This document shows, one piece after another, positions 40,236 through 40,718 of a stretch of 44,223 bases of DNA. The stretch lies in the sequence record PQ571293; one strand, 5' to 3'. Both the position numbers and the translations under genes were made by a program. Numbering within the stretch: the stretch's first letter is position 1; every line of letters starts with the position of its first letter. Below the pieces are notes generated by a model that saw only the letters and a list, made by a program, of their open reading frames with translations, was not told the DNA's origin and did no database searches. Source of the DNA: Escherichia phage EM1.

Positions 40236-40718
40236 TTATTCTTCTTCAAAATACTTGTTCTTGATTGCCGTCAGGCGTTCAAGGTACTCAGCCAGGTCTT
40301 CGTCTTTAATCGCGGCAATCTTCATCTTCTTACCGGTGAACTCTTCCAGCAGTTCATCGGAATCATCACACGCGGCATCGCTCGGACCTTCGTTAATCGC
40401 ATCGTCGATAGCCTGAATCTGGTCACGCAGAGACTGGTAATCTACTTCTTCCTTCTCTTCTTCCGGCTCTGGCGTTGGTTCCTCTACTTTAGCTTTACGC
40501 GGCTTGCGTTTTGGCTTCTCTTCTTCTGCCGGTTTAGTGTCGACGAGGTCTTCACCTTCGACCGGGATTTCTTTTGCTGTCCCGATTGTTGCGGTTTGTT
40601 CAACGACCCCGCTAACTAATGCAGTTTTTGCAACATTAACTTGTTTCGCGCTATTCGCAGCAATTAGTTCATGCGCAACTACGAAACGTTCAAGTAATTT
40701 TAAGAATTGGTCTAACAT
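40236..40718 (-). CDS. hypothetical highly acidic protein with Glu/Lys/Pro-rich low-complexity linker
   Basis: GAGGAGAG RBS; first gene downstream of minus-strand promoter 40750-40778; EEEKPKRKPRKAKVEEPTPEPEEEKEE segment. Confidence 0.45.
   Translation of the reverse strand: MLDQFLKLLERFVVAHELIAANSAKQVNVAKTALVSGVVEQTATIGTAKEIPVEGEDLVDTKPAEEEKPKRKPRKAKVEEPTPEPEEEKEEVDYQSLRDQIQAIDDAINEGPSDAACDDSDELLEEFTGKKMKIAAIKDEDLAEYLERLTAIKNKYFEEE

Follow-up and report, generated by a model that had tools for sequence, protein, structure and literature searches.

The leftward operon of Escherichia phage EM1 (sequence record PQ571293, a 44,223-nucleotide stretch that was analysed whole and is called the window below) raises a simple question at its promoter-proximal end: what is a small, strongly acidic protein of 160 residues doing there? 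An earlier note, made from the sequence alone, had suggested a DNA mimic or host-takeover factor and had offered this as speculation. No positive evidence for such a role was found, although the conserved acidic part of the protein is compatible with it. What the analysis finds is a real, widespread and uncharacterised core gene of modular design.

The reading frame at 40236-40718 on the minus strand is genuine, with an ATG start, 160 codons and a TAA stop, and direct reading of the sequence places a ribosome-binding site, AGGAG (40727-40731, minus strand), 8 nt before the ATG. Given 2467 database homologues and a C-terminal pN/pS of 0.025 among close relatives, this is a real gene and not a chance frame. 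The strong acidity ascribed to its product holds up well (pI 4.49; 40 Asp plus Glu against 22 Lys plus Arg; net charge -18), and among the 73 window ORFs of at least 80 aa it tops the ranking by acidic fraction and net charge per residue. The linker quoted in the earlier note, EEEKPKRKPRKAKVEEPTPEPEEEKEE, corresponds to residues 65-91, and the acidic C-terminal region described there is the last 69 residues, with a net charge of -12. The description "low-complexity" has to be divided: it suits residues 24-91 or so, but both ends of the protein are ordered, conserved modules.

The DNA of the region is about 90% identical to that of E. coli Kagunavirus phages such as fFiEco03, fPoEco01 and Bas70, which makes the window a Kagunavirus-like siphophage of the Guernseyvirinae; hundreds of Salmonella Jerseyvirus records also match the region around the gene. 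Read along the minus strand, the helicase-primase gene (41076-43316) comes first, then, on the opposite (plus) strand, a gene for a 71-aa Cro/CI-type HTH regulator (40843-41058; Pfam HTH_3, E 1.1e-12), annotated as a transcriptional regulator or repressor in relatives. The coding sequence of the acidic protein (PHROG 3127; 40236-40718 including the stop codon, minus strand) is followed on the same strand by NinX (39893-40192), a 90-aa ORF, the DUF2800 PD-(D/E)XK exonuclease (38383-39639), an 88-aa ORF, the gp2.5-like SSB/annealase (37440-38066) and, beyond the SSB gene, PolA. The same order of helicase-primase, HTH gene, 160-aa gene, small ORFs, exonuclease, SSB and PolA is found in Kagunavirus, Jerseyvirus, Cornellvirus, Tsm2, phiEap-2, TS6 and Dhillonvirus. 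A search anchored on the exonuclease gave 79 viral-contig loci; setting aside four with less than about 750 nt of upstream sequence, the gene lies upstream of the exonuclease and on the same strand in every one of the remaining 75. Within the replication module it counts as a core gene. The duf2800-gp2.5-polA module itself is already known (PMC8093625).

The family is narrower than the company it keeps. The protein matches phrog_3127 over residues 1-160 with an E-value of 1.6e-66, as do all 32 of the diverse homologues examined, and that PHROG has no assigned function. All 2467 homologues in a large protein collection are unnamed or "hypothetical", none of them with a Pfam domain, and a profile search run exhaustively against 1.84 billion cluster representatives returned only 55 clusters (50% identity). 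Of the records in the phage collection, 484 carry the gene, mostly Salmonella and Escherichia Guernseyvirinae; a search started from a distant member finds 192 phage records, a partly overlapping set which brings in Dhillonvirus, Edwardsiella eiAU and a few more. The DUF2800 exonuclease occurs in 1479 phage records from many hosts, compared with roughly 680 for the 160-aa family (overlapping sets), so the family, so far as sequence can detect it, does not extend beyond a single enterobacterial sub-lineage of the duf2800-gp2.5-polA module.

Some homologue records carry the label "13.88 kDa late protein", a name that goes back to a Salmonella phage MB78 entry, UniProt Q9T1Z8. This entry is also the best structural match in BFVD (75% identity) and belongs to the same family. 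An experimental basis for the MB78 label was not found in the searchable literature, and the label is at odds with a promoter-proximal position behind a host-type promoter, from which early expression would be expected. In the K1B4 Kagunavirus transcriptome (PMC12645636) the homologue is gene 003 by its coordinates; the text and tables of that report give it neither an early nor a middle class.

Upstream of the gene, as had been proposed, stands a near-consensus sigma-70-type promoter, TTGACA-17-TATAGT (40750-40778, minus strand), matching the consensus at 11 of 12 positions. A scan of a 7-kb region ranks it among its top two sites, although promoter-like sites in that region are in total no more numerous than the shuffled expectation. 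A second leftward promoter (38125-38153, minus strand), ahead of the SSB gene, has identical hexamers and a spacer that is nearly the same. By sequence reading, the spacer of the first contains an operator-like palindrome, AATAG-TTCG-CTATT (40755-40768, minus strand), and the form AATAG-TTnG-CTATT is common to the spacers of both leftward promoters. The 11-mer ATGTGAATAGT has exactly two copies (40763-40773 and 40807-40817), with a two-mismatch copy at 38138-38148 inside the second leftward promoter, and a third related site is found close to where the HTH gene starts. From this arrangement the adjacent HTH protein may bind the operator-like sites and control them. That the acidic protein is encoded by the first gene after the promoter is right for the window but does not extend to all relatives, since a 75-aa ORF precedes the homologue in Bas70 and an HNH gene precedes it in phiEap-2.

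The gene ends as distinctively as it begins. A hairpin with a UUCG loop, GCGGCC-UUCG-GGCCGC (40213-40228, minus strand), is indeed present 7 nt after the stop codon and is followed by UUUAAC. Folded alone it reaches -13.5 kcal/mol; within a 46-nt segment around it an alternative fold is possible and z is only -1.1. A terminator scan did not call it, and its tail is only UUU. Among 81 scanned loci with a homologue, 43, those of Kaguna/Jersey type, have the same GCGGCC-UUCG-GGCCGC hairpin. Another clade has GCCCCGG-YGCG-CCGGGGC with UUUU in the same place, Dhillonvirus has GGCCCGC-hexaloop-GCGGGCC with UAUUUUU, and further variants exist, such that most lineages have a stable GC hairpin of differing sequence right after the stop codon, several of them with U-rich tails. 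Retention of the structure while its sequence is replaced between lineages argues that the hairpin is functional. Its likeliest role would be partial termination, as an attenuator, or stabilisation of an RNA 3' end.

The protein itself was studied in three alignments: 47 homologues, 32 members spread across the whole family, and five divergent Guernseyvirinae homologues that are 33-46% identical overall. Alignments and AF2 agree on an N-terminal hydrophobic helix, LLERFVVAHELIAANS (residues 1-23; 40650-40718, minus strand), which AF2 extends over residues 2-23 at pLDDT 80-84. Residues L8 to S23 are invariant in the five divergent homologues and nearly so in the 47 sequences, and L8, R11, V13, A15, E17 and A20 are retained in the wider family of 32. 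In distant homologues this is the least altered part of the protein, with pN of 0.25 against 0.45-0.49 elsewhere. Third codon positions vary beneath the helix, which places the selection on the protein; a DNA-level constraint, such as an operator or origin in the 5' end of the gene, was considered as a cause of the N-terminal invariance and is excluded by the freedom of these positions. Nearly all faces of the helix are hydrophobic, which suggests burial in an oligomer or a partner more than a simple amphipathic surface helix.

Residues 24-91 (40446-40649, minus strand) form a charged linker predicted to be disordered (pLDDT about 50-60), variable in length and sequence, with a net charge near zero across the family. 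Its first part, to about residue 50, is hypervariable in both respects; from there to residue 91 runs a block-charged stretch with conserved motifs of both signs. The acidic motif, EGEDLVD (residues 54-60; 40539-40559, minus strand), has D57, L58 and D60 nearly invariant in the 47-sequence alignment, and a GED(L/I/V)VD or EDDL(A/D)D motif is present in 47 of 75 related loci. The basic motif, KPKRKPRKAK (residues 68-77; 40488-40517, minus strand), is conserved in the alignments: E66, K68, P69, K70 and R71 are invariant in the five Guernseyvirinae homologues, R71, K72 and R74 in the 47, and distant members have KRGRKP, TRGK or RGRGR in its place.

The remainder, residues 92-160 (40239-40445, minus strand; ending KYFEEE), is an acidic domain of three predicted helices. 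With a diverse alignment AF2 places these at residues 94-110, 114-128 and 139-158 with pLDDT 88-95, and leaves residues of about 30-90 disordered. The domain has the consensus LRxEIxxxAxxIxxGDSDxxxDxFDDLLEEYxVKxVxKLxDEDVxxFHxxLKxIVxKYY(D/E)xE. R98 is nearly invariant in the family; in the 47 sequences S113, D114 and D121 are invariant and D118 nearly so, and by helical periodicity Asp114, Asp118 and Asp121 of helix 2 share one face. Acidity is a family-wide property (pI 4.4-5.2), the net charge of this domain being -12 here and from -3 to -21 across the family. Among close relatives the N-helix has a pN/pS of 0.13 and the linker one of 0.49, as compared with the very low C-domain value given above, which marks that domain as being under very strong purifying selection. 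Some homologues have a tandem duplication of the C-domain, and others have linkers down to about 25 residues. The picture, as alignments and predicted structure present it, is of two constrained modules on a free tether.

Database searches agree with the earlier reading that no motif gives the function away: Pfam, NCBIfam and PDB sequence searches yield no match. For the protein and 32 relatives, Pfam and NCBIfam results are empty or low-complexity noise, and PDB searches with the single sequence, the full-length profile or the C-domain profile find no real match. The C-domain does share its predicted three-helix bundle fold with the C-terminal domains of phage annealases and mediators (lambda Red-beta CTD, lambda Orf/NinB, 80-alpha Sak). 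The best profile match is 8qe9, at an E-value of 0.14-0.16, the value that goes with a weak match to the Sak C-terminus; Red-beta is absent from profile matches at E up to 10, and protein A and designed bundles score as well or better. The link to Red-beta CTD, Sak or NinB is not above background and stays no more than a lead. The earlier note had held that assignment to a known replication accessory family would count against its proposal; such a family was looked for, and no known one matches.

Two proteins from other phages occupy the same genomic position: gp70 of the Chi-like phage SPN19 (135 aa) and a 244-aa protein of Yersinia phage YeP4. Each begins with a helix, continues through a K/T-rich linker into a small helical C-domain that contains an xFG(V/L/A)xK(V/L) turn, and is acidic at its end. 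The Chi-like counterparts are called "RecT protein" in UniRef yet have no RecT domain. Comparison by hhalign with the Chi and YeP4 counterparts gives P of 0.005-0.08, non-significant though in the right register; for the gp70 family the full profile gives P of 0.005 and the C-domain profile 0.076, 33 columns being in register. The SPN19 and YeP4 proteins are treated here as positional and architectural counterparts, their homology being unproven. The Dhillonvirus anti-Tmn protein (PMC11846954), also considered, is a distinct protein (ORF35), essentially restricted to Dhillonvirus and with a beta-sheet C-domain.

A further pattern concerns the ends of the neighbouring proteins. Of the window's 280 open frames that encode 60 aa or more, only three have (E/D)DL endings: the helicase-primase, with ..VVTEEDLE, the exonuclease, with ..RVTEEDLE, and a 77-aa protein, with ..TATLEDLE. 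Across related loci the (E/D)DL tail is found on the helicase-primase in 58 of 60, on the exonuclease in about 76 of 79 and on the 77-aa protein in 22 of 22, while the SSB ends with an Arg-rich segment after an acidic block in 51 of 54. The motif is specific to the lineage yet common to several proteins within one phage: phiEap-2 has DDDL(A/S)(D/N); Oekolampad has DEDLSNE together with DDDLKD; SPN19 has ..EDEV on primase, exonuclease and SSB, with gp70 ending ..EEDDV; and YeP4 has ..AESLI on its exonuclease and SSB-like protein. The 160-aa protein has an ending of the type Y-F/Y-acidic, here KYFEEE, where the helicase-primase and exonuclease end in TEEDLE, and the two are nearer elsewhere (YFELED against DEDLS in Dhillonvirus, YYDIEE against DDDL in phiEap-2). 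Within the linker, the motif EGEDLVD is likewise similar to the (E/D)DL endings of helicase-primase and exonuclease.

We tentatively favour, at somewhat short of even confidence, the view that the protein is an abundant non-enzymatic adaptor of a T7-like replication/recombination module, serving the helicase-primase, the DUF2800 exonuclease, the gp2.5-like SSB/annealase and PolA; its partners and its part as organiser are all putative. It would act as a tether with two independently conserved docking modules. The N-helix would probably oligomerise or insert into a groove of a partner, and the acidic bundle, through the Asp residues of helix 2, would probably dock on a positively charged surface, for example a DNA-binding cleft or the phage SSB's Arg-rich tail. 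For the Lys/Arg/Pro motif of the linker, possible contacts are DNA and the acidic tails on other proteins of the replisome. Several lines of evidence point this way: core-gene synteny in all 75 loci, similarly laid out proteins of unproven homology at the equivalent position in SPN19 and YeP4, two constrained modules joined by a free linker in the pN/pS pattern, an acidic-plus-aliphatic type of motif held in common with replisome proteins, and the GC hairpin that recurs after the stop codon in different sequences. The strong host-type promoter and stable hairpin suggest a protein more abundant than the enzymes encoded downstream, which would fit a stoichiometric organiser. The high sensitivity to restriction-modification (RM) reported for related Kagunavirus isolates also speaks for an adaptor. 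Against it stands the lack of homology to characterised replication or recombination proteins in Pfam, NCBIfam and the PDB. Synteny also has a counterexample, as lambda gam likewise lies with the replication genes bet and exo. Since the family is much narrower than its module, a host-specific role would explain its distribution equally well.

Such a role is the substance of the DNA-mimic proposal in its most plausible form, which we consider rather unlikely overall but still a serious rival: the acidic domain, perhaps multimerised by the N-helix, would fill the DNA-binding site of a host enzyme, RecBCD being the most plausible. The protein would then be an analogue of lambda Gam or T7 gp5.9, shielding linear phage DNA ends while the phage exonuclease and annealase act. 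A feature expected of mimics is present in the strong negative charge on the predicted folded domain (net -12, pLDDT 88-95), where the conserved acidity is concentrated and Asp114, Asp118 and Asp121 are found. The promoter-proximal place, strong expression signals and conserved hairpin after the gene are in keeping with this, as is the limitation of the family to enterobacterial siphophages when the replication module is far wider; the invariance of the N-helix across Guernseyvirinae is what a conserved host target would lead one to expect. For RecBCD in particular, the order of 160-aa gene, exonuclease and annealase can be read as parallel to lambda gam-bet-exo. In lambda, the sensitivity to Old that underlies the Spi phenotype depends on red and gam functions, including inhibition of RecBCD by Gam. 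Kagunavirus and other small siphoviruses are described as sensitive to P2 Old, and by analogy with the lambda genetics a Gam-like function is possible in these phages. Yet the protein has no similarity in sequence or fold to Gam, gp5.9, Abc2 or any solved mimic; its 22 basic residues and conserved basic motif are atypical of dedicated mimics; and it belongs to a strictly syntenic core gene, not a variable accessory one. RecBCD is also a low-copy enzyme, so an anti-RecBCD role would not require a high-expression cassette. The text of the retron Ec48 paper is silent on whether Ec48 blocks Dhillonvirus phages, and a study of escaper mutants of SECphi4, SECphi6 and SECphi18 names the SSB and the polymerase and not the homologue of the 160-aa gene. 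An anti-restriction protein of the Ocr/ArdA kind, acting by DNA mimicry against type I RM systems (and BREX), is the least probable of the proposals and in our judgement very improbable indeed. It draws on low pI and promoter-proximal position, and no match to Ocr or ArdA families or folds was found. The Kagunavirus phages Bas70-76 are credited with "high sensitivity to RM systems" in PMC11990801, the homologue is confirmed in the Bas70 record, and this disfavours an Ocr-like role; Dhillonvirus carriers are likewise described as only moderately RM-resistant. Partial protection against type I systems alone would nonetheless be compatible with so general a statement of RM sensitivity.

The basic motif invites a different proposal, an architectural or regulatory DNA-binding protein whose Lys/Arg/Pro motif binds an origin or promoter while the acidic domain acts, by recruitment or modulation, on RNA polymerase or on the initiation of replication. 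Conservation of KPKRKPR, with AT-hook-like KRGRKP or RGRGR variants in distant members, and the location of the gene beside a regulatory region and an HTH regulator lend it some appeal. KPKRKPRKAK, however, has no Gly and no GRP core and so is not a canonical AT-hook (Arg-Gly-Arg-Pro). The motif is short and has acidic runs on both sides in a protein of net charge -18, no DNA-binding fold is predicted, and some homologues (P0275) have very short linkers with few lysines. We regard this proposal as improbable. A scaffold of the PopZ kind is still less probable: the N-helix would multimerise, the block-charged linker and the acidic domain, duplicated in some homologues, would supply multivalent electrostatic contacts, and a membraneless replication/recombination compartment would be assembled in small siphophages. 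In such a scaffold (E/D)DL tails would recruit the helicase-primase, exonuclease and 77-aa protein, and the Arg-rich tail would recruit the SSB.

Whichever reading holds, the gene is of practical interest. Kagunavirus, Jerseyvirus and Dhillonvirus are among the siphophages most often isolated for therapy and biocontrol of E. coli and Salmonella, and essentially all phages of these genera carry it, yet it is annotated as "hypothetical" or with an inherited, unverifiable label. If the protein organises the replisome, the widespread duf2800-gp2.5-polA module gains a member that is not an enzyme, and its study would offer a handle on how that module coheres through shared acidic tails. If instead it inhibits RecBCD or another host nuclease, it would be a new family of inhibitors and would explain the triggering of Old-type defence by these phages. 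Its clean three-part architecture makes the role directly testable, module by module.

Known systems offer three comparisons. Like Ocr, ArdA, lambda Gam and T7 gp5.9, the 160-aa protein is small, helical and of low pI, and probably expressed from the start of infection; unlike them it is built of modules joined by a long disordered linker in which a conserved basic motif lies, and neither homology nor a fold match connects it with any of them. Caulobacter PopZ resembles it in architecture alone: a short helix for interactions at the N-terminus, a disordered acidic linker rich in Pro and Glu, C-terminal helices and a pI of about 4. The sequences are unrelated, however, and none of the 32 members has a Pfam match. 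PopZ oligomerises through its C-terminal helices, whereas here the hydrophobic N-helix may be the likelier oligomeriser. In the T7 replisome, gp2.5 and gp4 use their acidic tails to dock on the gp5 polymerase. T7 has no stand-alone protein of the present architecture, and the tails here end in (E/D)DL(E) where those of T7 have a terminal Phe, any docking in the present module being putative. But this module, too, contains a gp2.5-like SSB, a PolA and a helicase-primase with shared acidic tails, and the 160-aa protein, itself acidic, has an aromatic-plus-acidic C-terminus and an internal motif that resembles a tail. This pattern of tails shared within a replication module has helped to shape our preference, for the 160-aa protein, for the part of adaptor.

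Gene orientation and the flanking gene slots around the acidic focal gene vary between lineages. In Kagunavirus and Jerseyvirus the helicase-primase gene is co-directional with the focal-exonuclease-SSB-polymerase block, with an antisense HTH gene wedged between them; in phiEap-2, Tsm2, TS6, FSL SP-049 and Dhillonvirus it is divergent from that block (orientation of the window gene, 41076-43316 on the minus strand, versus related loci L002, L003, L004, L005 and L007). This is an inversion of the block between lineages. The gene slots directly 5' and 3' of the focal gene also differ among phages: the window has NinX (39893-40192, minus strand) in the slot after it, Bas70 has no NinX and carries an extra 75-aa ORF between promoter and focal homologue (4663-4890 of its locus, L001), and phiEap-2 has an HNH endonuclease gene ahead of its homologue. 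Between the exonuclease and SSB genes of the window lies an 88-aa ORF (38150-38416, minus strand), longer than the ORF annotated in this gap in relatives, whose strongly hydrophobic middle, FGVLGGLVAFLSYHFMMLPVYSLLFPLMAYLAI, suggests a small membrane protein within the replication module.

The two best leftward promoters, 5' of the focal gene and 5' of the SSB gene, have in common TTGACA/TATAGT and a near-identical spacer. Each spacer contains the palindrome AATAG-TTnG-CTATT (40755-40768 and 38130-38143, respectively, both minus strand), and a related site stands beside the start of the HTH gene (40807-40817, minus strand). The sites at both promoters and at the HTH gene are likely operators for the 71-aa Cro/CI-type regulator.

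Focal-family proteins vary in architecture. P0142, P0173, P0242, P0247 and P0251 (208-215 aa) carry the acidic C-terminal three-helix domain in two tandem copies, some members such as P0275 (115 aa) have a very short linker, and P0220 has a long insertion within it. Many Guernseyvirinae annotations (e.g. phage records H30, H35, H42, H45, H47, H52 and H62) call the product "13.88 kDa late protein", a label that has spread from Salmonella phage MB78 (UniProt Q9T1Z8, an entry of 123 aa); the mass does not match the 150-178-aa proteins, and the "late" timing is putative. Chi-like proteins of 130-136 aa at the equivalent position (SPN19 gp70, 3670-4077 of locus L088; P0308, P0318, P0324, P0347) carry the UniRef name "RecT protein". 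Because they are half the size of RecT and have no RecT Pfam match, this name is probably an annotation artefact or an echo of a C-terminal similarity.

Helicase-primase, DUF2800 exonuclease (38383-39639, minus strand) and a 77-aa protein (43374-43607, minus strand) of the window end in a common tail of the TEEDLE/TLEDLE type; among the window's 280 open frames with 60 aa or more, no others have an (E/D)DL ending. The common tail is conserved over about 60-79 related loci (compared: the window, L002-L007, L087, L088 and viral-contig loci L008-L086). Its sequence differs between lineages, yet it stays common within each phage: phiEap-2 and Oekolampad have ..DDDLxx, Chi-like SPN19 has ..EDEV and YeP4 has ..AESLI. 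It looks like a candidate T7-style docking tail for a single shared hub.

SSBs of Chi-like phages and YeP4 end in the same acidic tail as their replisome proteins. The C-terminus is Arg-rich in 51 of 54 related SSBs. Whereas the tail of T7 gp2.5 is purely acidic, the gp2.5-like SSB of the window (37440-38066, minus strand) ends in an acidic block and then an Arg-rich tail (NDLEDDEEDEAPRRERRRR).
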